From the NCBI GenBank assembly GCA_030649345.1, contig JAUSKK010000021.1, positions 1-7,837 on the forward strand: a stretch of DNA of 7,837 nt, read 5' to 3'. A program made the position numbers and the translations under genes. Under the pieces are notes generated by a model. It was not told the origin of the DNA and did not search any database. It was given only the letters and a program-made list of their open reading frames with translations. This stretch comes from Candidatus Iainarchaeum sp. GTDB taxonomy: Archaea > Iainarchaeota > Iainarchaeia > Iainarchaeales > 0-14-0-20-34-12. Positions 1-7,837 of this stretch are shown in pieces. Numbering within the stretch: position 1 is the first letter of the stretch; every line of letters starts with the position of its first letter.

Positions 1-21
1 CTTTATTTCATCCATATACTG

Positions 22-30
22 CTTATAATC
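22..30 (+). promoter_or_regulatory. A/T box CTTATAATC, also present verbatim at 5527-5535 upstream of the second tRNA-Ser; candidate shared promoter or upstream element
   Basis: Identical 9-mer in the same orientation upstream of both tRNA-Ser genes; TATA-like composition. Confidence 0.3.
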
Positions 31-75
31 CGTAATTTCTTTAAATCAAACTTTTTAAACACTCCCAAACACTGG

Positions 76-84
76 TTTTATATT
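76..84 (+). promoter_or_regulatory. TATA-like box TTTTATATT, possible promoter of the tRNA-Ser(UGA) precursor
   Basis: Resembles the archaeal TATA consensus; lies about 25-30 nt before the start of the structured leader (around 110). Confidence 0.3.
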
Positions 85-110
85 CTCTGTTTTTAGAGAG
101 TGTCTTGACC

Positions 111-167
111 AGACAATCGAATGCAATGAAGATTGTCTATCAGGAGGTATCGGAACCTAAGGTTCTG
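111..167 (+). other. Structured 5' leader of tRNA-Ser(UGA) with two hairpins
   Basis: Hairpin 1 is AGACAATC (111-118) / GATTGTCT (131-138) with 12-nt loop GAATGCAATGAA. Hairpin 2 is CGGAACC (151-157) / GGTTCTG (161-167) with loop TAA. The tRNA starts 4 nt later. Confidence 0.5.
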
Positions 168-211
168 ATTTGGTGAGGTGGCAGAGCCCGGTTGAATGCG
201 CCAGCCTTGAG

Positions 212-313
212 CTGCCTTTTCTTTTTCTTTGTGAAAGAAAAAGAAAATGTAAGTTGCCAAAAGAAAAAGAAAGCTGCGCCTGTTGGCGCTAGATTTAGGC
301 AACAGTAAAAGTT
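212..313 (+). ncRNA. 102-nt structured intron at position 37/38 of tRNA-Ser(UGA); contains copy A of the pyrimidine/purine module
   Basis: Sequence between G37 and A38. Contains a 14-bp Y/R hairpin 217-247, lower stem GTTGCC 253-258 / GGCAAC 298-303, and upper hairpin GCGCC-TGTT-GGCGC 276-289. 3' bulge is T312 T313 | A314. No sense-strand ORF. Confidence 0.75.
217..272 (+). repeat. Module copy A: Y tract 217-230, loop GTG, R1 234-247, linker TGTAAGTTGCC 248-258, R2 259-272
   Basis: Y=TTTTCTTTTTCTTT, R1=AAAGAAAAAGAAAA, R2=AAAAGAAAAAGAAA, which is the exact mirror of R1. Confidence 0.8.
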
Positions 314-360
314 AGCTGGTAGGTCGCAAGGCCTCACGAGTTCAAATCTCGTCCTCACCG

Positions 361-370
361 TTTTTATTTA
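361..370 (+). terminator. Oligo-T terminator after tRNA-Ser(UGA)
   Basis: TTTTTATTTA immediately follows the discriminator base; archaeal RNAP terminates at T runs. Confidence 0.5.
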
Positions 371-393
371 CTTAGGTTGAAAAATTGATTTTT

Positions 394-1008
394 ATGGATT
401 CAAGAAAAGAACAATTGCAGTTTGCAGTTTCCATTTTATTTGATCACTCCATTCGCTATCTGAAAGGTGAACGAAATCCTGCAAATGAATTTGGCGATAT
501 TCCAGATCCTTTTGGTGAATTTGAGTCTGCAGTTCAAACTGTTCGCAATGAATTACTGGCACGAAAATGGAAACATGCTGCAGCCCAATTGTATACGTAT
601 GGCGAACACAAATCGTATGGAAAATTGTTGTTGCATTTGTCTAAAACAAGACTTTTGTCTGCTCGGCAAAGAAAAGAATTTAAGCCTTTTTTGGAAACTT
701 TGGATTTTGCTTACAATTTTATTAGACAATTTCATGCACGTAAAGCAAGTTATTCTGCTGAATTATCTAAATTGGGCGATCAATTGATTGTAAAACTTAG
801 TGATGTGTTTACTCCGCAAGGTCAAAAGCTTATTGGAAAAATCAAAGCACGCTTGACTGTTGAAGCAGCTGGCCGAAAACTTCATGGCCCAAGTGTTTTT
901 CCGGTTGGAAGCAGAGAATGGAATACTGTTCATAAATACAAACAAGCTGATTTACGTCCACGCAAAAAACCAGTTAAACGAGTTCTATTGAGAAAAAGAT
1001 TAAGGTAA
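394..1008 (+). CDS. Hypothetical protein, predicted helical with a strongly basic C-terminal tail (RPRKKPVKRVLLRKRLR)
   Basis: Long ORF with codon usage like its neighbours. I place the start at ATG 394 rather than the TTG at 385 used by the ORF track. No family recognised. Confidence 0.6.
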   Translation: MDSRKEQLQFAVSILFDHSIRYLKGERNPANEFGDIPDPFGEFESAVQTVRNELLARKWKHAAAQLYTYGEHKSYGKLLLHLSKTRLLSARQRKEFKPFLETLDFAYNFIRQFHARKASYSAELSKLGDQLIVKLSDVFTPQGQKLIGKIKARLTVEAAGRKLHGPSVFPVGSREWNTVHKYKQADLRPRKKPVKRVLLRKRLR

Positions 1009-1055
1009 AAAATTCATCAATTTCTTTTATTAATTGTTGTTTTCTTTATTTTATT

Positions 1056-1850
1056 ATGAATCGTTTGTTAGCCGGCAAGCATTTGGTTTTAAAGGCTGGC
1101 TGGATTGCGAAAAAATATTTTCGCAGACCAATTCATTTTTCGTTTAAGAAAAATAATAATATTTCTGAAGTAGTAACACCTGTAGATTTATTGATTGAGC
1201 AAACAGTCTGGCATTCTTTGCATAAATTGTTTCCAGAAGATACTGTAATTGGAGAAGAATTGGGAACGCATACTGGTTCAAGTGAATTTACTTGGTATAT
1301 TGACCCGATTGATGGAACGCAAAATTTTTACAAAAAAATTGGATTCTTTAACACTGCTGTGGCTTTAGAACAAAATGGTGAAGTTATTGCCGGCTGGATA
1401 TACAATCCTTTGTCCAATGACTTGTTTTTTGCCGAAAAAGGAAAAGGTGCTTTTTTGAACGGCAAAAAAATCAATCCTTCCAGTCAATCCAAATTCAAAG
1501 ATGCTTACTTGTTTTACTGTGATGGTAAATGTTCTAAAAAAGAATTGGATTTGTTTGGAATTATTTTCAAAAAATTACGTTCTCGTGTTTTTGAATTAAG
1601 AAAAGTAGCTTCTGCTAATTTAGAATTTGCGTATATTGCCTGCGGTCGTGCAGATGTATTTGTTTGTACTGACTTAAAATTGGTTGACTTTAAAGCTGGT
1701 CTTTTGCTGTTAACTGAAGCCGGCGGAAAAGCCACAGACTGGGCTGGAAAAACACCTGGGCAAGAAACAAGAAGTTTTGTTGTCAGCAATGGAATATTGC
1801 ATTCTAAAATTATTTCTGAAACCAAACCTTTTGCAAAGAAACTAAAATAA
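1056..1850 (+). CDS. Inositol monophosphatase / FBPase-family phosphatase (SuhB-like)
   Basis: Family motifs GEE(L)G, WYIDPIDGTQNF and TEAGGKATDW; length 264 aa is typical. Confidence 0.85.
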   Translation: MNRLLAGKHLVLKAGWIAKKYFRRPIHFSFKKNNNISEVVTPVDLLIEQTVWHSLHKLFPEDTVIGEELGTHTGSSEFTWYIDPIDGTQNFYKKIGFFNTAVALEQNGEVIAGWIYNPLSNDLFFAEKGKGAFLNGKKINPSSQSKFKDAYLFYCDGKCSKKELDLFGIIFKKLRSRVFELRKVASANLEFAYIACGRADVFVCTDLKLVDFKAGLLLLTEAGGKATDWAGKTPGQETRSFVVSNGILHSKIISETKPFAKKLK

Positions 1851-2325
1851 CCCAAACGCCAAAGCAAGCCACGGCAATTTTTTGCAATATTGGACTTTCT
1901 CTAAAAATTAAAAAAACTAAATCAATTAAAACAAATCCAAAACCAATTAAAGAAAGTTTTTTATCTATTTTTAATTTTTCCAAAGAATACAGTAATGCAG
2001 TTATTCCTGCTAGTATAAAAAATCCAGCAGCTGTAACAAAGTGTTCGAATGCAATATTCATGGGAAATATTCCCACTCCGCTTAAACTCAATCCTGCGAA
2101 AATTCCAGTGATTTTTTGAATTGAATCAAAATTCAAAAAGAAATAAGCTGCAAAACTGAATCCAGCTAAGATTAAGCCAGTATTAAACCAAAAAGCACTG
2201 GTTGATCCAATTCCAAGTTCGCTTAAATATTGTCCGGTGAAATTGTAATTGACATAATTGAGTATTGCAATTGCTGTAAAAACTAAAAAAAAGAAAACTC
2301 CTAAAAGTCCAAAATATTTTTTCAT
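1810..2325 (-). CDS. Polytopic membrane protein, possibly DUF998-like
   Basis: About 5-6 hydrophobic segments; the YLSELG motif resembles DUF998. Start moved to ATG 2325 (MKKYFG), 4 nt after the ribH stop, instead of TTG 2346. 3' end overlaps the IMPase 3' end by 41 nt. Confidence 0.6.
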   Translation of the reverse strand: MKKYFGLLGVFFFLVFTAIAILNYVNYNFTGQYLSELGIGSTSAFWFNTGLILAGFSFAAYFFLNFDSIQKITGIFAGLSLSGVGIFPMNIAFEHFVTAAGFFILAGITALLYSLEKLKIDKKLSLIGFGFVLIDLVFLIFRESPILQKIAVACFGVWVILVSLQKVWFQK

Positions 2326-2329
2326 GATT

Positions 2330-2815
2330 TCACTTGATTTTGTCAATTTCTTTCAATTGTTGTACAATCGCTTCAATTGTTCTTTTTCCGTATTCTAAAG
2401 CCCGTTCTTCTGCTTGCTTCATTGTAGCTCCTGGTCCAATAATTCCAAAACCTACTGGTTTATCGTATTTTACACTCAACCTCTGCAATTGTTTGGCTGT
2501 GCTATATCCAATCACTTGGTCATGGTCAGTTTCTCCTTTTACAATTGCACCTAAAACAGCTACTCCATTAATTTCGTTTAATTCCAATAATTTTTTGCAC
2601 GGCAGTACTGTATCGTAACTCCCATTTACTTCCAATTCATACACAATTTTTATTCCAAGTTTTTGTGCGCTTTCTCTTGCGCCTTTTAATAAATCTTGAG
2701 AAATTTTCGGATAATAATTTGAGTACACAATTCCTATCCGAACCGCGGGGGAACCAAGGTTTCCCCCCAGTTCTAGGGAGTTCCTGACCCCCTTCCTTGC
2801 AATTAATTTTTTCAT
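2330..2815 (-). CDS. ribH: 6,7-dimethyl-8-ribityllumazine synthase
   Basis: Conserved GETDHD and KPVGFGIIGPGAT...AEER motifs; collinear with archaeal RibH from RIGIVYS onward. Carries an atypical roughly 25-aa N-terminal extension. Confidence 0.88.
   Translation of the reverse strand: MKKLIARKGVRNSLELGGNLGSPAVRIGIVYSNYYPKISQDLLKGARESAQKLGIKIVYELEVNGSYDTVLPCKKLLELNEINGVAVLGAIVKGETDHDQVIGYSTAKQLQRLSVKYDKPVGFGIIGPGATMKQAEERALEYGKRTIEAIVQQLKEIDKIK
2747..2792 (-). other. Pair of GC-rich hairpins inside the 5' extension of ribH
   Basis: Minus strand: GGGGG-TCAGGAA-CTCCC (2792-2776) and GGGGG-A-AAC-CTTG-GTT-CCCCC (2767-2747). This is a local GC island in an A/T-rich genome. Confidence 0.45.
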
Positions 2816-2839
2816 TTTTTCACTTCAAATATTTTTTGC

Positions 2840-3328
2840 TTATAACTTTACTGTCTTTTCATTTGAAAATCCTTGTCTTTGTCCTGTGCCTGCTTTTTTT
2901 TGCAATGCTTTTGGATTAAACACTAAATCCAAAGCATTCAATGTATGTTTTACAGTTCGATTTCTCATAATTTTTGCCAATACTTTGTCATTTCCTTTGC
3001 TTTCGTTTTCAAAAACAAATACTTCAATGACATGCTTATTGGTCATTAATTGCACTTGCATTATTCCTTGAGCTGCTTCATGGGCGCACATATAATCAAT
3101 ATCTGCTTTTCCGCCCATTCCGCAAGCTATCACAATTTCGCATTCTTGTTCTTCAATTAATTTTTTGCAAGCCACAGCCAAATCTTTAAAACCTGGAACC
3201 GTGTATCTTAAAACTTCAACTTTTTTGGAATACTTGCTTTTTTGAATAGTTTTTTCAGCCAAAGAACCCATGTCTCCGCGTGCAAACATAGTGTCTGTCA
3301 CACCGATTTTAACTTTTTCATTTTCCAT
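2840..3328 (-). CDS. ribC: Archaeal-type riboflavin synthase
   Basis: Close resemblance to the MJ1184 family: VTDTMFARGDMGS, VPGFKDLAVACKKL, CAHEA, QLMTNKHVIEVFV, GQRQGF. Confidence 0.88.
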   Translation of the reverse strand: MENEKVKIGVTDTMFARGDMGSLAEKTIQKSKYSKKVEVLRYTVPGFKDLAVACKKLIEEQECEIVIACGMGGKADIDYMCAHEAAQGIMQVQLMTNKHVIEVFVFENESKGNDKVLAKIMRNRTVKHTLNALDLVFNPKALQKKAGTGQRQGFSNEKTVKL

Positions 3329-3711
3329 TATTCCACTTCCACAATTAAAGTATCTCCAACTTGTAAGCTAAATTTTTTAACCAATTCTTCGTTTGCAATT
3401 ACTTCCATTATATTTTCTGGATGTGTTGTTTTGTCCGGTACAACAATGGCTGCAGTTAATCCATTGATTTTGCATGGAAAACAATTGACTCCAAAATATT
3501 CTTGTCTATTTTCTTTAAATCCATGCATGTATACATTTTCTGCAGTTGCTTTGAGTTCTTCTAATTTTTCTTTTTTAACTTCTAAATTTAATGTTCCAGG
3601 AAAAGGAATAAATCCTAATTTTTCTTTAAATTGTTTAATGTAGCTTGGATGACTTAAAAAAGTTCCAGCTGTTCCAAATCCTTTAATCCAGGTTCCTGTA
3701 ATGGAAATCAT
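3328..3711 (-). CDS. ribK: CTP-dependent riboflavin kinase (archaeal RibK, MJ0056 family), no HTH domain
   Basis: GFGTAG and PFPGTLNL motifs; 127 aa. Its TAA stop shares one nt with the ribC ATG (TAATG), indicating translational coupling. Confidence 0.8.
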   Translation of the reverse strand: MISITGTWIKGFGTAGTFLSHPSYIKQFKEKLGFIPFPGTLNLEVKKEKLEELKATAENVYMHGFKENRQEYFGVNCFPCKINGLTAAIVVPDKTTHPENIMEVIANEELVKKFSLQVGDTLIVEVE

Positions 3712-3747
3712 ATAATTATTTCGAATCCCAAATCGTTAAAAATAGAG

Positions 3748-3756
3748 CTTTTATAG
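3748..3756 (+). promoter_or_regulatory. TATA-like box CTTTTATAG in the divergent ribK / GT2 intergenic region
   Basis: About 30 nt upstream of ATG 3782, suggesting a leaderless mRNA. The reverse complement CTATAAAAG also faces ribK. Confidence 0.35.
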
Positions 3757-3781
3757 TTGTTTGTTGCATTCTTTTATTTGT

Positions 3782-4456
3782 ATGCGAAAAAAAGCAGTAA
3801 TTGTAATTGCCGCCTTTAATGAAGAAGAATCCTTGGGCCGTACTCTAGACTTAATCAAAGCAACGCGTTTGCCTGCACAAATTATACTAGTCAATGATGG
3901 TTCTACAGATAAAACTCGAGCAATTGCTTTAGCTAAAGGAGCCCAAGTCATTGACATGGTGGATAAAACAAATCAATCCAAAAATCGCGGTAAAGCGAAT
4001 GCAATTTTTGCTGGATTGCGTGCTGCTTTGAAATTTAATCCAACTTCAGTGGTTACCTTAGATGCAGATATGTTAACTGTTCCGCGTGTTTCTTTAAAAG
4101 AATTAATTGATTCAGCTCATACAGCTACACGCATAGGAAAAATTGCAATGCATGTTGCACCGTATGCGGAAGGAACCTTTGAACCGCACACATACCTTTC
4201 TGGTTTGCGTTCGTTTAGTATTCCTGCTTTACATTATTTGCATAAATCTAAATTCAAAAGCATTCCGCGAGGTTATGGTTTGGAAACTTTTTTAGGAATC
4301 TTTTTTTCAAAATTTAGACAAAATACAAAAGGTTCGTTTCAATTAGAGCCTGGGTTTCGTTCAAGTGCCAGTAAACAACATCAAAAATCTGATATTGCTT
4401 TGACTCGAAAAAGAATTACAAAACGCTTTCGGCCGCGTTTTCGTTTGCATGTTTAA
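3782..4456 (+). CDS. Family 2 glycosyltransferase
   Basis: N-terminal VIVIAAFNEEESL...VNDGSTDKT and DAD motif (TLDADM). Start placed at ATG 3782 rather than TTG 3761. Confidence 0.8.
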   Translation: MRKKAVIVIAAFNEEESLGRTLDLIKATRLPAQIILVNDGSTDKTRAIALAKGAQVIDMVDKTNQSKNRGKANAIFAGLRAALKFNPTSVVTLDADMLTVPRVSLKELIDSAHTATRIGKIAMHVAPYAEGTFEPHTYLSGLRSFSIPALHYLHKSKFKSIPRGYGLETFLGIFFSKFRQNTKGSFQLEPGFRSSASKQHQKSDIALTRKRITKRFRPRFRLHV

Positions 4457-5340
4457 TTTCTTTCCAGTTTTGTTCCTTTTTTGAATACAATTTCCATGTG
4501 AGGATACGCAAATTCTACGTCTTCGGTTTTTCTAAAACGTGCATGAATTTCTTCGGTTATTTCGTGGGCAATTTTATCCATTTTAGGCGGAGGCACTGGA
4601 AATCGTAAATTAATGTCTACACTGGATGCTGCAAATTTGGTTCTTGTATGCGGATCCATTTTGCTGGGCGCAATATATTTTCCTGCTTTTTCTTTAGCTA
4701 CATCCATCATAATTTCTTGAGCTTTGGTTAAATTGCTTTCATACGTTACTGATAAATGAATTTCTTTCAAAACAAACTGGTTCATAAACCTATAATTAAT
4801 AACTGGTTTTTCAAAAATAACAGATGTTGGAATTAATATTGTTCGTCCACTGTGAGCTTCGCTTTCAAACATTCCTCCGACTTCTCGTAAAACCAAATAA
4901 AACATGGTGATGTCTTCAATATCTCCTTTGAGTGTATCAATGATTATTCGGTCTCCGATTTTGAATGGTTTTTTGATTAAAATCATTAACCATCCAACTA
5001 TTCCTGCAATGGGTTTTTGTAATGAAAAACCTAAAGCTGCAGATAATAAACCTAAAGTAACTCCAGTTAATCCAAGGTTTCCTGAAAAAGTCAGCAAAAT
5101 AACTACAGCTGCTAAGAAAGCAAAAGCATACCGCCACATTTTTTCAACAGTAGCTCTATCTTCTTCTTTAAATCTTTGCAGGCTTTTATGAACCCCAAAA
5201 CTAACCAGTTTATAGACTACAAAAATAACCACTATGGCCAATATTATGGTTAATGCCGTAGGCAAATAACTGTTTAAGGTGTCTGTTAAAGAAACCAAGG
5301 CAGTGCCTGCCTTTTGAAAGTTCTGGTCAATTAGCCCCAT
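4453..5340 (-). CDS. Small-conductance mechanosensitive channel (MscS family)
   Basis: Three N-terminal TM helices followed by KKPFKIGDRIIID...GDIEDI...GRTILIPTSVIF, the typical MscS beta-domain signature. Confidence 0.85.
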   Translation of the reverse strand: MGLIDQNFQKAGTALVSLTDTLNSYLPTALTIILAIVVIFVVYKLVSFGVHKSLQRFKEEDRATVEKMWRYAFAFLAAVVILLTFSGNLGLTGVTLGLLSAALGFSLQKPIAGIVGWLMILIKKPFKIGDRIIIDTLKGDIEDITMFYLVLREVGGMFESEAHSGRTILIPTSVIFEKPVINYRFMNQFVLKEIHLSVTYESNLTKAQEIMMDVAKEKAGKYIAPSKMDPHTRTKFAASSVDINLRFPVPPPKMDKIAHEITEEIHARFRKTEDVEFAYPHMEIVFKKGTKLERN

Positions 5341-5420
5341 AATTAGATCGTGTGTTGGTTTTTTTTCCTTTTTTAAAATATTATACTAAAGTATATCCTT
5401 TCTTTTATTAATCATTTCCT

Positions 5421-5500
5421 CGGCCCCTTTTCTTTTTGGAAAAAAGAAAAGGTGTACGTTAGCCCAAAAGAAAAAAGTGCACTTCGTGCACTGGCGTGCG
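5421..5500 (+). ncRNA. Module copy B, free-standing outside any tRNA exon; candidate small RNA or 5' part of a long tRNA-Ser(GGA) precursor
   Basis: CGGCC; Y 5426-5437 CCTTTTCTTTTT; loop GGA; R1 5441-5452; linker TGTACGTTAGCCC; R2 5466-5476 AAAAGAAAAAA; hairpin GTGCAC-TTC-GTGCAC 5477-5491; TGGC. A/T boxes lie upstream (5371-5398) and T-rich tracts downstream (5513-5529). Confidence 0.5.
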
Positions 5501-5526
5501 GTTATTAATAATTTCTCTTTACTTTT

Positions 5527-5535
5527 CTTATAATC
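5527..5535 (+). promoter_or_regulatory. A/T box CTTATAATC, second copy of the 22-30 box
   Basis: Identical 9-mer about 90 nt upstream of the tRNA-Ser(GGA) 5' end. Confidence 0.3.
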
Positions 5536-5569
5536 GTATTCGGTACGTATTTGCATCTTAATGATGTCC

Positions 5570-5624
5570 GCGCTGCTGAGCAACAGCGAAAGCAGTGCTA
5601 AAGCGTCAACCGATTTTGCGGTTG
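5570..5624 (+). other. Structured 5' leader of tRNA-Ser(GGA) with two hairpins
   Basis: Hairpin 1 is GCGCTGCT (5570-5577) / AGCAGTGC (5591-5598) with 13-nt loop GAGCAACAGCGAA. Hairpin 2 is CAACCG (5607-5612) / CGGTTG (5619-5624). The tRNA starts 2 nt later. Confidence 0.5.
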
Positions 5625-5664
5625 TTGCAGAGATGGCGGAGCGGTCAAACGCACTAGCCTGGAA

Positions 5665-5868
5665 CGGCCTTTTCTTTCTTTGCGAAAGAAAGAAAATGTA
5701 CGTTGCCAAAAGAAAGAACTGTGTGCCTTTCAGGCACTGGCTTTCGATTGGTTGAATTAGTCCGGTATATTTCTGTGCTGCTTTAGCACGATTAAAACGT
5801 GTTCGTTTTAATGTGCATTAAGCCTTTGGCTTAATTGCAGCACGTGCTATCAACCGGCACCCCGGTTG
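5665..5868 (+). ncRNA. 204-nt structured intron of tRNA-Ser(GGA): module copy C, a three-way junction and a terminal hairpin
   Basis: Module 5665-5741. Closing stem GTGCTGC 5775-5781 / GCAGCAC 5837-5843 encloses hairpins 5786-5816 (13 bp, TGTT loop) and 5819-5833 (TAAGCC-TTT-GGCTTA). Terminal hairpin is CAACCGG-CACC-CCGGTTG 5851-5868. Confidence 0.75.
5670..5718 (+). repeat. Module copy C: Y 5670-5681, loop GCG, R1 5685-5696, linker TGTACGTTGCC 5697-5707, R2 5708-5718
   Basis: Y=TTTTCTTTCTTT, R1=AAAGAAAGAAAA, R2=AAAAGAAAGAA, the mirror of R1. Confidence 0.8.
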
Positions 5869-5916
5869 AGCTAGATCCTTTACGGGATACGCGAGTTCGA
5901 ATCTCGTTCTCTGCGA

Positions 5917-5928
5917 TTTCCTTTTTTT
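5917..5928 (+). terminator. Oligo-T terminator after tRNA-Ser(GGA)
   Basis: TTTCC followed by a T7 run at 5922-5928, directly after the discriminator. Confidence 0.55.
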
Positions 5929-5978
5929 CCAACACTGACACACGAAGCTTAATATAGTACAGCTTCAGGAGTGTGAGT

Positions 5979-7226
5979 ATGAAGGAAAATTTGGGAGAAA
6001 CATTCAAAGACAAAGTAGACATCTATAACTATCCTAAAAAGATTAAACGTCAACTAGAGAAACTAAATGAATTAGATGCACATAATTCTAAACTAATTTT
6101 GGATTTCTATCGAACTTATTGCATTTCAAATAATCTAACCCATCCAAGAACCTTTAAGGCACTGAATACCCTTTACTTGATTGCAAAACGCACTCAATGT
6201 CCTTTAGACAATATTACGCTTGATGTAATTCGTGAACTAAAAGCTCAATTGCGAGAAAAAAAGTTATCTGACTTCACAGTGAATGACTATGTTACTCATA
6301 TCAAAACATATTTGATTCACTTAGATAAGAAGAAATATGCTGACTTACTGGATTCTAGGGAACTTAAGTTCATTGATGGATATAAAACAAAAGCAAAGCT
6401 TACGACTGATGACTTATGCAATGAACAAGACCTTAGAAATATTTTAACTGCCTGTAAAAACACGTATGAGTCTGTTTTGGCTTATTTACTTATTGAATCT
6501 GCTTGCAGAATTTCTGAGTTAATGAATATTCGAATCAAAGACTTAAAGTTTGATGAAAATGGATGTGACGCTGAAATTACTAAAAGTAAAACTGCAACAG
6601 GTGTTCGAACTATTCGTTTAGTTCAATCTCGTCAAATATTGCAAAAATGGCTTGAAGAACATCCACAGCGAACTGACAGAACTGCATTGGTTTTGCTTTC
6701 GCCTAAAGGAAGAGTTTATTCTTATGCAGCCGTGAAGAAAATTTGGAAAGCAGTAATCAAACGTGCTGGAATTGATGCAAGTAAGTTAACTAATTTTCAT
6801 GCTTATCGTGCTCTTCGCTACACTGCACTAGAATCTTCTGGTAAGTTGTCTCAAATGGAAATCAATATGCATATGGGTTGGAGTGCACAAGGTGGAGCTA
6901 GACAAGCTCAACGATACTCAAGACATTCTTACAATAACCTAAAACAAAAAATGAATGAATTAAATGGAATTATTAAACCTAAAGAAATTGAAAGAAAAAA
7001 TCAGTTTGAAAATAAAGTTTGTTTAAGCTGCTTTTCTGTTTATGATACAATCGCTATGTTTTGTAAAAAATGTAATATTCCATTAGATGAAAGTTTAAAG
7101 AAAAAGAAAGAATTATTCGAAAAAAGCGAACTAATCGAGTATGCTGCAGGAAAAGAAAAACTAAAACAATACATTTTCGAAATAATGGAAGAATACTTCA
7201 AAGAGAAAGGGGTTATTGCTGATTAG
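5979..7226 (+). CDS. Tyrosine recombinase / integrase with a C-terminal zinc-ribbon extension
   Basis: Catalytic pattern: R (ESACRISEL), K (TKSKTATGVRTI), H-x-x-R (FHAYRALR), W in place of the second His (MGWS), Y (QRYSRH). CxxC-x10-CxxC at 7020-7073. Start placed at ATG 5979, preceded by AGGAG (5967-5971), rather than GTG 5973. Confidence 0.85.
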   Translation: MKENLGETFKDKVDIYNYPKKIKRQLEKLNELDAHNSKLILDFYRTYCISNNLTHPRTFKALNTLYLIAKRTQCPLDNITLDVIRELKAQLREKKLSDFTVNDYVTHIKTYLIHLDKKKYADLLDSRELKFIDGYKTKAKLTTDDLCNEQDLRNILTACKNTYESVLAYLLIESACRISELMNIRIKDLKFDENGCDAEITKSKTATGVRTIRLVQSRQILQKWLEEHPQRTDRTALVLLSPKGRVYSYAAVKKIWKAVIKRAGIDASKLTNFHAYRALRYTALESSGKLSQMEINMHMGWSAQGGARQAQRYSRHSYNNLKQKMNELNGIIKPKEIERKNQFENKVCLSCFSVYDTIAMFCKKCNIPLDESLKKKKELFEKSELIEYAAGKEKLKQYIFEIMEEYFKEKGVIAD

Positions 7227-7821
7227 TTAACTTTTGTTTGTTTGATTTATTAACTAAATATACACTTATTTCTACAAATTCATTTATTTTATTTTCTTTC
7301 CACATCTCTAAGTCTTTCACGTATTTAATATTCCCTGTATTTTTTTTTCTAAAATTAAATTTGATTGAATGGGCATAGTCATTTATTTTTTGTTTTATTT
7401 TAGACTCACTGTCACTGCGTTCAATAGAAAAATTATTTGCAAGTTTTTTTATGGTTTGATTAAAATTATCTTTTTTTATAAGCTGAACTAAGTTAATAAT
7501 TAATTCATTAACTATGTCTTTGTTAACGCGTTTGTCTTCTATTAAGCCTTTACAAATATCACGTTCTAAATCAGCTACTTTTGTATCTTTTGCGGCGTTA
7601 TTTAAAAAAAATAACCTCGAAATTGGATTATTCCAATAATTGACCATTTTCTTAATAACTGTTCCTTTTTCATATTGCCAAATAATACTTTCTATTAAAA
7701 ATGATAAATCTGTGTAAAAATAAATAGTTTCTTTGTTTTTATTTGTTTTACTAATTTCCTTAGAAAAAAATGGTTGCGTTAAAAATTTGTTGAGCCATTC
7801 ATTTTTGTTTAAGGAATACAC
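7213..7821 (-). CDS. Hypothetical protein, Lys/Asn/Ile-rich, element cargo; N-terminus may lie beyond the window
   Basis: Long ORF convergent with the integrase and overlapping it by 14 nt. The annotated start is GTG, and the frame stays open upstream to 7837. Confidence 0.5.
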   Translation of the reverse strand: MYSLNKNEWLNKFLTQPFFSKEISKTNKNKETIYFYTDLSFLIESIIWQYEKGTVIKKMVNYWNNPISRLFFLNNAAKDTKVADLERDICKGLIEDKRVNKDIVNELIINLVQLIKKDNFNQTIKKLANNFSIERSDSESKIKQKINDYAHSIKFNFRKKNTGNIKYVKDLEMWKENKINEFVEISVYLVNKSNKQKLTNQQ

Positions 7822-7837
7822 AAGTTGTTGGTTTACG

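Follow-up and report, generated by a model that had tools for sequence, protein, structure and literature searches.

Why should two tRNA introns and an intergenic spacer of a single archaeal contig share a module in which a pyrimidine tract is followed by two purine tracts, the second of which reads as the mirror image of the first? The window examined here is a stretch of 7,837 nt from Candidatus Iainarchaeum sp. (GenBank assembly GCA_030649345.1, contig JAUSKK010000021.1, positions 1 to 7,837 of the forward strand). A preliminary description, made from the letters of the window, had presented the module as an RNA element whose pyrimidine tract (Y), first purine tract (R1) and second purine tract (R2) vary together, and had proposed either a triple helix or a helix switch. 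The element is a previously undescribed multi-copy family of DPANN (Iainarchaeota/Diapherotrites) archaea, present mostly within tRNA introns and at tRNA gene ends. Judging from the covariation of its three tracts, it is probably a fold-back, triplex-type three-strand element, which would be duplicative and parked at tRNA processing sites.

The core of the element runs in the order (C)TGCC(C), Y, a short loop (3–6 nt), R1, the linker TGTA(A/C)GTT, GCC(C) and R2, Y and R1 forming a Watson–Crick hairpin of 10–18 bp and the second spacer measuring 11–13 nt in the main form of the family (type 1). The window contains three copies, all on the + strand, and sequence reading, alignment and folding recovered every part that had been listed for them. 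Copy A opens the 102-nt intron (212–313, position 37/38) of a tRNA-Ser(UGA) gene (172–360). There, CTGCC (212–216) precedes the Y tract TTTTCTTTTTCTTT (T4CT5CT3, 217–230), which forms a 14-bp Watson–Crick hairpin with R1, AAAGAAAAAGAAAA (A3GA5GA4, 234–247), across the loop GTG (231–233); the conserved linker TGTAAGTT (248–255) and GCC (256–258) then lead to R2, AAAAGAAAAAGAAA (A4GA5GA3, 259–272), the mirror of R1, the same-direction complement of Y and the candidate third strand. Copy C opens the 204-nt intron (5665–5868) of a tRNA-Ser(GGA) gene (5627–5915) with CGGCC (5665–5669), Y, TTTTCTTTCTTT (T4CT3CT3, 5670–5681), the loop GCG (5682–5684), R1, AAAGAAAGAAAA (A3GA3GA4, 5685–5696), paired with Y in a hairpin, the linker TGTACGTT (5697–5704), GCC (5705–5707) and R2, AAAAGAAAGAA (A4GA3GA2, 5708–5718), again the mirror of R1. 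Copy B (5421–5501) is a solo intergenic copy with no tRNA near it, between the start of an MscS gene (5340, - strand) and the tRNA-Ser(GGA) leader; it comprises CGGCCCC (5421–5427), Y (T4CT5, 5428–5437), R1 (A6GA4, 5440–5450) with an extra GG (5451–5452) that pairs with CC 5426–5427, the linker TGTACGTT-A, that is TGTACGTTA (5453–5461), GCCC (5462–5465) and R2 (A4GA6, 5466–5476).

The three copies align with a mean identity of 73%, and each folds into the Y:R1 hairpin with R2 unpaired (z-scores -2.7 to -4.4). The core pattern matches three times in the window and not once in 200 shuffles. A linker-independent scan, defined as a pyrimidine arm, a loop, a purine arm, 4–16 nt and the mirror of the purine arm, found copies A and C, with no match in 1000 windows simulated under a first-order Markov model, and a chance origin of the window pattern is excluded. 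What follows R2 is more variable. Copy A has a GC hairpin (GCGCC/GGCGC, 276–289), then TTT (294–296) and GGCAAC (298–303), which close a stem, P3, with 253–262 (GTTGCC 253–258 being its 5′ strand), and this whole part (276–303) is not kept across the family; copy B continues with a hairpin (5477–5491) and GGC (5493–5495); and the remainder of intron C (5719–5868) has a GC hairpin (5723–5737), GGC (5739–5741) and a 127-nt structured 3′ domain that lies outside the repeat family. The GC hairpin and the T(G/A)G after R2, originally counted as parts of the module, are present in the window copies but not conserved family-wide.

Homologues were searched for with a pattern that fixed only AAAA, the linker, GCC and a purine run, in one scan each of the GTDB species genomes and the JGI metagenomes, which returned 67 and 84 loci, respectively (hereafter L and a number). 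About three quarters of the matched loci were true copies with the full architecture, 82 of them distinct after removal of duplicates. Nearly all come from metagenome-assembled genomes (MAGs) of Iainarchaeum/Diapherotrites-type DPANN archaea, the complete AR10 genome included, and a few carry the labels Aenigmatarchaeota, Pacearchaeota or plain "archaeon". One MAG, STA_60, holds at least 13 copies, several of which have identical cores at unrelated loci. Some 25 matches in bacteria and other organisms were discarded because they lacked the Y hairpin, and the single match in a scan of viral contigs was a coding false positive. In agreement with the proposal that this is not a named RNA family, no Rfam 15 covariance model matched the element at E<=1, the sole match in the window being a chance long non-coding RNA elsewhere (E=1), and neither of the boxes of box C/D small RNAs (C box RUGAUGA, D box CUGA) occurs in 212–313 or 5665–5741. 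Full-text literature searches turned up neither this element nor any account of triplex motifs in archaeal tRNA introns, and no archaeal RNA triple helix; to our knowledge, a three-tract motif has never been described for tRNA introns.

The three-way covariation expected from the window copies is overwhelming among these homologues. When the tracts were anchored at their conserved neighbours (Y read 5′ to 3′ from the C-run, R1 3′ to 5′ from the linker, R2 5′ to 3′ from GCC(C)), 954 of the 967 three-strand positions in the 82 copies were T-A-A or C-G-G. In the first 55 copies, Y:R1 is Watson–Crick at 662 of 669 positions and R2 equals the mirrored R1 at 664 of 669. The G positions of these 55 copies fall into 14 classes (the C positions of Y into 27 in the combined set, some C's lying at the loop end of the tract), and the Jaccard index between the G positions of R1 and R2 is 0.95; when R2 was shuffled among copies 5000 times, it averaged 0.28 and never exceeded 0.44. 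The length of the tract nearest the linker (3, 4, 5, 6 or 7) always agrees in the mirror sense, and the 5′ GCC(C)(C) box has as many C's as the box in front of R2, and as many as R1 has terminal G's. Pairs were also counted on a MAFFT alignment of 48 copies (alignment A4), in which the linker is nearly invariant, as had been anticipated from the window. Here, Y:R1 is paired at 99.8%, with changes on both sides at 10 of 12 pairs. Set against R2 in the parallel register (column 6+i with 52+i), Y is "complementary" at 100%, 97.3% and 100% over 12 positions, nine of which have changed on both sides, a covariation score reached by none of 500 shuffles, whereas registers slid from this one give ~74–92%. 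In its parallel register, R2 thus matches Y no less closely than R1 does in the antiparallel one. The pattern scans and the MAFFT alignment were both true to register.

The polarity of R2 needs more care. In copies A and C, whose R1 tracts (A3GA5GA4 and A3GA3GA4) are nearly self-mirror, a mirror is indistinguishable from a direct repeat shifted by 1 nt, so the mirror relation originally attributed to all three copies can be upheld only for copy B (A6GA4 vs A4GA6), the one window copy that discriminates, and for the homologues. Of 55 copies, 33 fit a mirror better than the best direct repeat, 22 fit both equally well and none fits the direct repeat better. Four asymmetric copies, namely L042 (Y T4CT5CTCT3, R1 A2GAGA5GA4, R2 A4GA5GAGA3), L058 (Y T7CT5, R1 A4GA7, R2 A7GA4), L124 (Y T4CTCT3CT3, R2 A4GAGA3GA3) and L135, rule out the direct-repeat relation and make the polarity certain; it agrees exactly with a third strand folded back antiparallel on R1. 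We know of no templated mutational process that generates mirror repeats, and the mirror relation therefore points to selection, which may act on each locus or on which copies propagate. A strand test based on the spectrum of G.U versus C.A mismatches in Y:R1 had only ~4 mismatches among 967 positions to work with, too few to discriminate.

The constraint is also visible in orthologous introns. The tRNA-Ser(UGA) introns of the window (copy A), L003, L038 and L058 carry four different tract patterns; between L038 and L058, whose exons are ~93% identical (estimated by eye from the alignment), three tract positions differ, and each has changed in all three strands. Similarly, the intron module of tRNA-Ser(GGA) is common to the window, AR10 (L018) and three other MAGs (L020, L037, L056), and in L020 the pattern has switched in all three strands. 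Such concordant changes indicate that the constraint persists in place, and not only in recent bursts of copying.

Where do the copies lie? Of the 82, 21 are in sense orientation and 5 in antisense orientation in anticodon-loop introns and introns, respectively; 8 start 1–3 nt past a tRNA 3′ end (sense); 7 end 0–3 nt before a tRNA 5′ end (antisense; L009, L022, L026, L044, L045, L050 and L064); 4 follow the T-loop sequence GGTTCRA; and for 37 no tRNA was recognised within 6 nt. Wherever a copy is linked to a tRNA, as more than half of them are, it is the CTGCC/Y end that abuts tRNA sequence. Module-bearing introns were found in Ser, Leu, Tyr, Asn, Gly, Ala, Trp and Cys tRNAs, and the presence of the same module in many different tRNAs indicates that it has spread between genes. 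The copies that follow GGTTCRA are probably non-canonical introns. Five metagenome copies (L083, L089, L096, L114, L151) start right after ...GGTTCAAA(C) or GGGTTCGATA, which are T-loop-like sequences, and ARAGORN calls no tRNA gene at these five; the sequence context suggests that the same module may form non-canonical T-loop introns in some tRNAs. Several solo copies begin 2–6 nt after a stop codon, and the orientation relative to neighbouring open reading frames (ORFs) is random (12/12/11/11).

The flanks suggest that the element is duplicative or mobile. Direct repeats of the upstream flank, 12–34 nt long, bracket about eight copies, including L005, L011, L019, L027, L033, L039 and copy B of the window, where TTATTAATCATTTC (5405–5418) and TTATTAATAATTTC (5502–5515) are 14 nt long and differ by one mismatch; in L011 the repeat is a 34-nt duplication of a tRNA-Lys 3′ end, and in L005 a 23–33-nt duplication of the start of the downstream gene. 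The 5′ boundary of the element is fixed and the 3′ boundary varies, from R2 + 1 nt to >100 nt. Copies are also found at contig ends (L025, L034, L051). For copy B, the neighbouring MscS protein led to no empty site, its closest homologue being just 47% identical. The elements L019 and L027 were considered as CRISPR spacers between ATTGAAA...CGCCGCC repeats and rejected, as the repeats are a duplicated flank beside a terminator hairpin and form no array.

In short introns (72–90 nt) the element is essentially the whole intron. A helix P1 (CUGC/GCAG or TGCCC/GGGCA) lies beside the splice sites, P2 is the Y:R1 hairpin, followed by the linker, and P3, of the form (GT)TGCC(C)AAA.../...TTTGG(G)CA(AC), leaves most of R2 as a loop or bulge; a short 3′ tail is complementary to the anticodon loop. 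R2 had been described as a large asymmetric bulge, which agrees with its unpaired state in the folds, but its first few A's can form Watson–Crick pairs in P3. A four-strand model (Y:R1 + R2:Y3) was rejected: the Y3 partner is real in some copies, yet short and variable. Three copies (L012 6926–7060, L048 3829–3995, and L064 on the - strand near 6753) have extra units of linker, GCCC and purine tract in tandem after R2, with differing G patterns, which look like arrays of additional third strands without hairpins of their own.

The linker-free scan revealed a second family (type 2), in which a 6-nt linker CC[TC][TC]GG separates tracts of 6–9 nt, as in CCTTTTCTT aa AAAGAAAAG CCTTGG GAAAAGAA. Sixteen copies with exact mirror tracts and five patterns were found, at loci L004, L009, L014, L016, L019, L023, L024, L035, L054, L064, L065 and L066. 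They lie in tRNA introns (Gly, Ala, Arg, Ser), directly 3′ of tRNAs and, as assessed by eye on their flanks, antisense before tRNA 5′ ends; all eight copies recognised in tRNAs are sense. Because C(CUUG)G is a tetraloop-like turn, R2 would be forced back alongside R1, a textbook fold-back triplex design. Other linker variants are GGCAGGTTGCC, TGTAGGTT and TGTAAGCT. In L009, three copies belong to a single tRNA-Gly gene (1771–1934), one of type 1 at the 5′ end and two of type 2, in the intron and in the trailer.

Only one physical model predicts a mirror relation over 10–18 positions, namely a three-stranded helix composed of the Y:R1 hairpin and of R2 in antiparallel orientation to R1. The linker would turn the chain, so that R2 would run antiparallel to R1 along the Y:R1 helix and read it by A.A-U(T) and G.G-C triples, as a purine-motif, "class II" Y-R-R intrastrand triplex; the complementary strand would automatically encode the pyrimidine-motif (U.A-U / C+.G-C) version. 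With less confidence, we propose that a compact, self-contained fold at splicing endonuclease, RNase Z or RNase P sites would be removed cleanly from the tRNA, that the element may persist thereby, and that the copies with three concordant tracts would be those maintained or propagated. In the window, introns A and C owe their 5′ domain to the element, the outer helix of the putative splice motif with it, and copy B stands alone as an insertion. Several points weigh against this fold-back model. In the passages of PMC4666352 and PMC7583470 that cite Semerad & Maher 1994, all-RNA purine-motif triplexes are reported not to form, yet in the window copies it is the purine version that is transcribed. 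With most tract patterns close to their own mirror image, R2 could also form Watson–Crick pairs with Y at a shift of 1 nt. In many copies the first 3–12 nt of R2 can pair with a downstream T-rich segment (stem P3), which competes with third-strand binding and is a caveat for a full-length triplex. A simple turn would require fewer nucleotides than the 11–13 of the type-1 linker, whose strict conservation the model does not account for. Copies within one genome are related by descent, and the independent compensatory events are nearer 15–25 than 82 in number. Finally, no transposase or reverse transcriptase is linked to the element.

Other explanations can be set against the same data. The most extreme is that there is no tertiary structure at all, the module being an A/T-rich low-complexity hairpin, an intergenic terminator or promoter cassette in which R2 resembles R1 by descent and homopolymer slippage. 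T-rich tracts do follow tRNA 3′ ends and stop codons, a TATA-like motif follows R2 in many copies from STA_60 and STB_123, and A/T-rich pseudo-triplex motifs are common by chance in A/T-rich genomes (PMC4666352), but we regard this reading as highly improbable: it is already contradicted by the simulated windows and by more than 20 pattern classes with three concordant tracts; no templated mutational process is known to create mirror repeats; location in introns is incompatible with a terminator role; and, in a published survey, stems >11 nt were never found in scrambled genomes (PMC4666352). Quite unlikely, too, is the Watson–Crick switch of the preliminary description, in which Y pairs with either R1 or R2. 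In such a switch, the GCC boxes would change their pairing with the 3′ GGC(A) segments, and folding or processing would be toggled. The near self-mirror patterns make the energies of Y:R2 and Y:R1 close, the antiparallel Y:R2 duplex being on average 0.8 kcal/mol weaker and at least as good in 11 of 55 copies, and the two TGCC(C) boxes before Y and R2, with their matching C counts, could compete for the same GGGCA partners. A switch would nevertheless select for R2 = R1, and it is disfavoured by the register comparison, in which the mirror never loses, and by the matching of first-tract lengths in the mirror sense; strongly asymmetric copies, such as L042 (-16.6 vs -11.8) and L046, lose 3–5 kcal/mol of Y:R2 pairing, and the 6-nt CCUUGG linker of type 2 places R2 beside R1, not Y.

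The remaining readings, namely sense RNA, single-stranded DNA and antisense RNA, overlap with the fold-back three-strand statement and differ in the molecule that folds. If the sense RNA is functional, R2 would form an all-RNA purine-motif helix of 10–18 triples on Y:R1 in the pre-tRNA or the excised intron, and the host may benefit from a rigid, nuclease-resistant domain that presents the splice motif, for example, or stabilises the excised or circularised intron. We see this as a tentative possibility. In its favour are the sense bias of intron copies (25, that is 21 plus 4 at T-loops, vs 5) and of type-2 copies in tRNAs, the coincidence of the element's ends with RNA cleavage sites, the membership of CUGCC in the helix beside the 5′ splice site, and the concordance kept in orthologous introns though the rest of the intron diverges. 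In addition, Broitman, Im and Fresco are said to have reported a poly(A.A.U) triplex in vitro in 1987. Against it, besides the reported exclusion of RNA strands from purine-motif triplexes in the passages mentioned above, 12 of the 45 copies linked to tRNAs run antisense, the copies are oriented at random with respect to ORFs, and solo copies have insertion footprints. The pyrimidine motif (U.A-U, C+.G-C) is the triplex form known in RNA, and no natural RNA triplex beyond single A.A-U or G.G-C triples is listed in PMC7583470. The antisense strand, which reads U-rich tract 1, linker, U-rich tract 2, loop, A-rich tract, GGCAG, would form a triplex of that well-established type; where it lies directly upstream of a tRNA, RNase P cleavage would then release an upstream RNA with its 3′ end protected inside the triplex, like that of MALAT1/mascRNA. 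Seven copies lie flush (0–2 nt) against tRNA 5′ ends in antisense orientation, and 5 of 8 such cases have a co-oriented ORF upstream; that of L009 stops ~100 nt before the antisense module, and tRNA-Gly comes next. Still, this reading is unlikely, as 5 of 8 is indistinguishable from chance, and all three window copies and 33 of the 45 tRNA-linked copies are tRNA-sense, so that antisense transcription would have to run counter to the tRNA gene. Finally, the element could be a DNA-only, non-B structure, an archaeal counterpart of the bacterial BoxC/TM_ECO repeats: single-stranded DNA exposed in replication or transcription would fold, the top strand in the purine motif and the bottom strand in the pyrimidine motif, and promote duplication or rearrangement, tRNA sites being merely tolerated places of insertion. 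Multiple copies in both orientations, variable flanking duplications and repeats at contig ends are in line with this, and purine-motif intrastrand triplexes are experimentally established for DNA (PMC4666352), whereas A.A-T-rich purine triplexes are weaker than G.G-C-rich ones (PMC4666352), and the reading does not account for a CTGCC end placed exactly (0–3 nt) where RNA is processed, for the preference of intron copies for the sense orientation or for the concordance in orthologous introns; we hold it, too, to be possible but doubtful. Taken as evidence on the level of action, the intron sense bias, the ends on cleavage sites and the maintenance in orthologous introns lean towards RNA, and the occurrence in both orientations, the random orientation relative to ORFs, the flanking duplications and the BoxC/TM_ECO precedent lean towards DNA or a selfish element. 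The "RNA module" of the preliminary description is thus not established.

Among known systems, the bacterial intrastrand-triplex repeat is the closest kind by analogy, here apparently combined with spreading archaeal tRNA introns. BoxC/TM_ECO are potential intrastrand triplex (PIT) repeats of bacteria, of the form 5′-CCCTCNCCC N3-6 GGGNGAGGG N3 GGGNGAGGG (Hoyne et al. 2000; Holder et al. 2015, PMC4666352). Y-loop-R-loop-R repeats form stable intrastrand DNA triplexes in bacteria, and BoxC/TM_ECO marks unstable loci (PMC4666352). The element shares with BoxC/TM_ECO the strand order of the purine-motif class (pyrimidine block, loop, purine block, loop, purine block), with a complement that encodes the pyrimidine-motif class; it is likewise short, non-coding, multi-copy, intergenic, present on both strands and tied to local rearrangement or duplication. 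It differs in being archaeal, unrelated in sequence and A/T-rich (~85% A.A-T) instead of G.G-C-rich: its T4CT3-5C... and A-rich tracts do not match the pattern CCCTCNCCC...GGGNGAGGG...GGGNGAGGG. Moreover, its tracts are 10–18 nt long (9 in BoxC), its linker of 11–13 nt is conserved (1–6 nt in the bacterial definition), more than half of its copies lie exactly at tRNA processing sites, many of them making up most of a tRNA intron, and its many covarying tract variants are evolutionary evidence for a three-strand constraint, of which we met no report for BoxC. As in the purine class of ITxF, Y, R and R lie on one strand and the third block mirrors the second with at most one mismatch (954/967 concordant). 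Given that ITxF is defined with stems of 6–15 nt and both loops of 1–6 nt (Holder et al. 2015), an ITxF search would miss type 1, with its stems of 10–18 nt and second spacer (TGTAAGTT+GCC(C)) of 11–13 nt; the type-2 family (CCTTGG, 6 nt) falls within the stem and loop definition.

The MALAT1, MEN-beta and PAN ENE helices resemble the element in being intramolecular, with about 10 or more triples made of two like tracts and one complementary tract. On the antisense strand only, the likeness extends to two U-rich tracts and one A-rich tract, and at the seven loci directly 5′ of a tRNA, RNase P would create a triplex-protected 3′ end, comparable to the tRNA-like RNase P site of MALAT1. The strand transcribed in the window and in most tRNA-linked copies instead has a single U-rich tract and two A-rich ones, its third strand would bind in antiparallel, reverse-Hoogsteen orientation and not in parallel, the element is archaeal, and there is no sequence similarity; in the window, the tRNA-sense strand has no two U-rich strands and no RNase P-made A-rich 3′ end. 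Like archaeal bulge-helix-bulge introns, the module-bearing introns sit at position 37/38, their exons rebuild a cloverleaf, and a putative splice motif lies beside the intron helix; unlike the usual archaeal tRNA introns, they measure 72–204 nt (usually 12–40), and the module is also found at tRNA 5′ and 3′ ends and between genes, in both orientations and with flanking duplications. Fujishima and colleagues reportedly described, in 2010, families of similar introns spread among tRNAs of Thermoproteales (intron transposition). The R1-linker-R2 unit is a purine mirror repeat, the sequence requirement of H-DNA; unlike H-DNA, the element has Y on the same strand, so that a triplex is possible within one strand without unpairing half of a duplex. 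Miniature inverted-repeat transposable elements are similarly small, non-coding and multi-copy, but the ends of the element (CTGCC-Y and R2) are not inverted repeats, and its flanking repeats (12–34 nt) are variable and found at ~8 copies.

These comparisons give the family its interest. Natural RNA triple helices known so far are of the pyrimidine motif, the purine motif being considered DNA-only, and here more than 80 natural variants, most of them in transcribed tRNA introns, have a purine third strand that covaries base for base with a hairpin. Whether all-RNA purine-motif triplexes form is directly testable with a 60-nt oligonucleotide and ready-made compensatory variants. It is conceivable, though we would not count on it, that the sense transcript is a natural all-RNA purine-motif triple helix of 10–18 consecutive reverse-Hoogsteen A.A-U/G.G-C triples, set within archaeal tRNA introns and trailers, and that the complementary U.A-U form caps RNase P-made 3′ ends upstream of tRNAs; if so, archaea would possess a bidirectional analogue of the MALAT1 triplex, and biology its first long RNA triplex of the purine type. 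Even if DNA-only, the element would give the bacterial intrastrand-triplex repeats their first counterpart in archaea; it would also be the first of these repeats for which comparative evidence speaks for selection on a three-strand fold, and a new spreading tRNA intron or flank module in DPANN archaea, relevant to archaeal tRNA intron gain.

The element accounts, too, for the tRNA genes that standard finders overlook in these genomes. In the window, neither ARAGORN in its default (intron-free) mode nor Rfam found either tRNA-Ser gene. With the -i option, ARAGORN reports tRNA-Ser(tga) at [171,361] with a 102-nt intron, and a tRNA at [5626,5916] with a 204-nt intron and a mislabelled anticodon. 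In our reading, tRNA-Ser(UGA) consists of exon 1 (172–211) and exon 2 (314–360), with an acceptor stem GGTGAGG/CCTCACC, an anticodon stem 201–205/315–319 and a long variable arm (320–335), and tRNA-Ser(GGA) of exon 1 (5627–5664) and exon 2 (5869–5915), with an acceptor stem GCAGAGA/TCTCTGC and an anticodon stem 5654–5658/5870–5874, all on the + strand. Copies A and C each begin at the first intron nucleotide after position 37, the canonical position (37/38) of archaeal bulge-helix-bulge tRNA introns, and removal of the introns leaves complete cloverleaves. A relaxed bulge-helix-bulge is possible for intron A, with a central helix 206–209/308–311 of three Watson–Crick pairs and a G.A, bulges A210 G211|C212 (5′) and T312 T313|A314 (3′) and a weak outer helix (213–215/305–307); for intron C, we found just a 4-nt 3′ bulge or competing hairpins. 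In the homologue L003 the motif is clean (central helix CTTG/AGAG, outer helix TGCCC/GGGCA). The 3′ domain of intron C (5742–5868), which contains a three-way junction (~5776–5846) and a hairpin CAACCGG/CCGGTTG (5851–5868), is missing from the orthologous introns and has no Rfam match. Both tRNA genes have apparent hairpin-rich leaders of about 65–80 nt (~90–171 and ~5560–5626), and the nearest TATA-like boxes lie far upstream of both, which suggests long processed leaders in this organism.

A tyrosine-integrase gene (5973–7226; noted together with 7213–7821, - strand) starts 58 nt past the 3′ end of tRNA-Ser(GGA). An integrase gene just after a tRNA gene is the classic layout of a tRNA-integrated element. 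The C-terminus of this integrase has a Cys4 motif and a weak match to DUF6852. Homologues lie near modules at only three loci, namely the window, L030, where the homologous integrase follows a module-bearing tRNA-Cys, and L022, and an integrase association was rejected as a general feature of the family.

A TATA-like motif, yTTTkGrTAAACA, is conserved after R2, ~20–35 nt before the next ATG, in L005 (4176–4316) and in many copies from STA_60 and STB_123 (L014, L015, L023, L024, L026, L031, L053, L061, L064, L066). In L005, the element and the duplicated gene start place this motif before the intact gene, and the element may thus carry an outward promoter; it is also open in one frame of 37 codons. 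Promoter, terminator and coding readings of the module, the 37-codon frame included, were rejected, as they leave the mirror covariation unexplained.

The other genes of the window are archaeal, among them those for a CTP-dependent riboflavin kinase, an archaeal riboflavin-synthase-like protein and lumazine synthase. The contig is A/T-rich apart from a G+C-rich island of ~60 nt (2745–2800, ccgcgggggaaccaaggtttccccccagttctagggagttcctgaccccc) with an inverted repeat GGGGAACC/GGTTTCCCC. This island lies within the 5′ end of a lumazine-synthase-like ORF (2330–2815, - strand), where it encodes 24 N-terminal residues that fall outside the Pfam match, and could be an inserted element or an assembly artefact.

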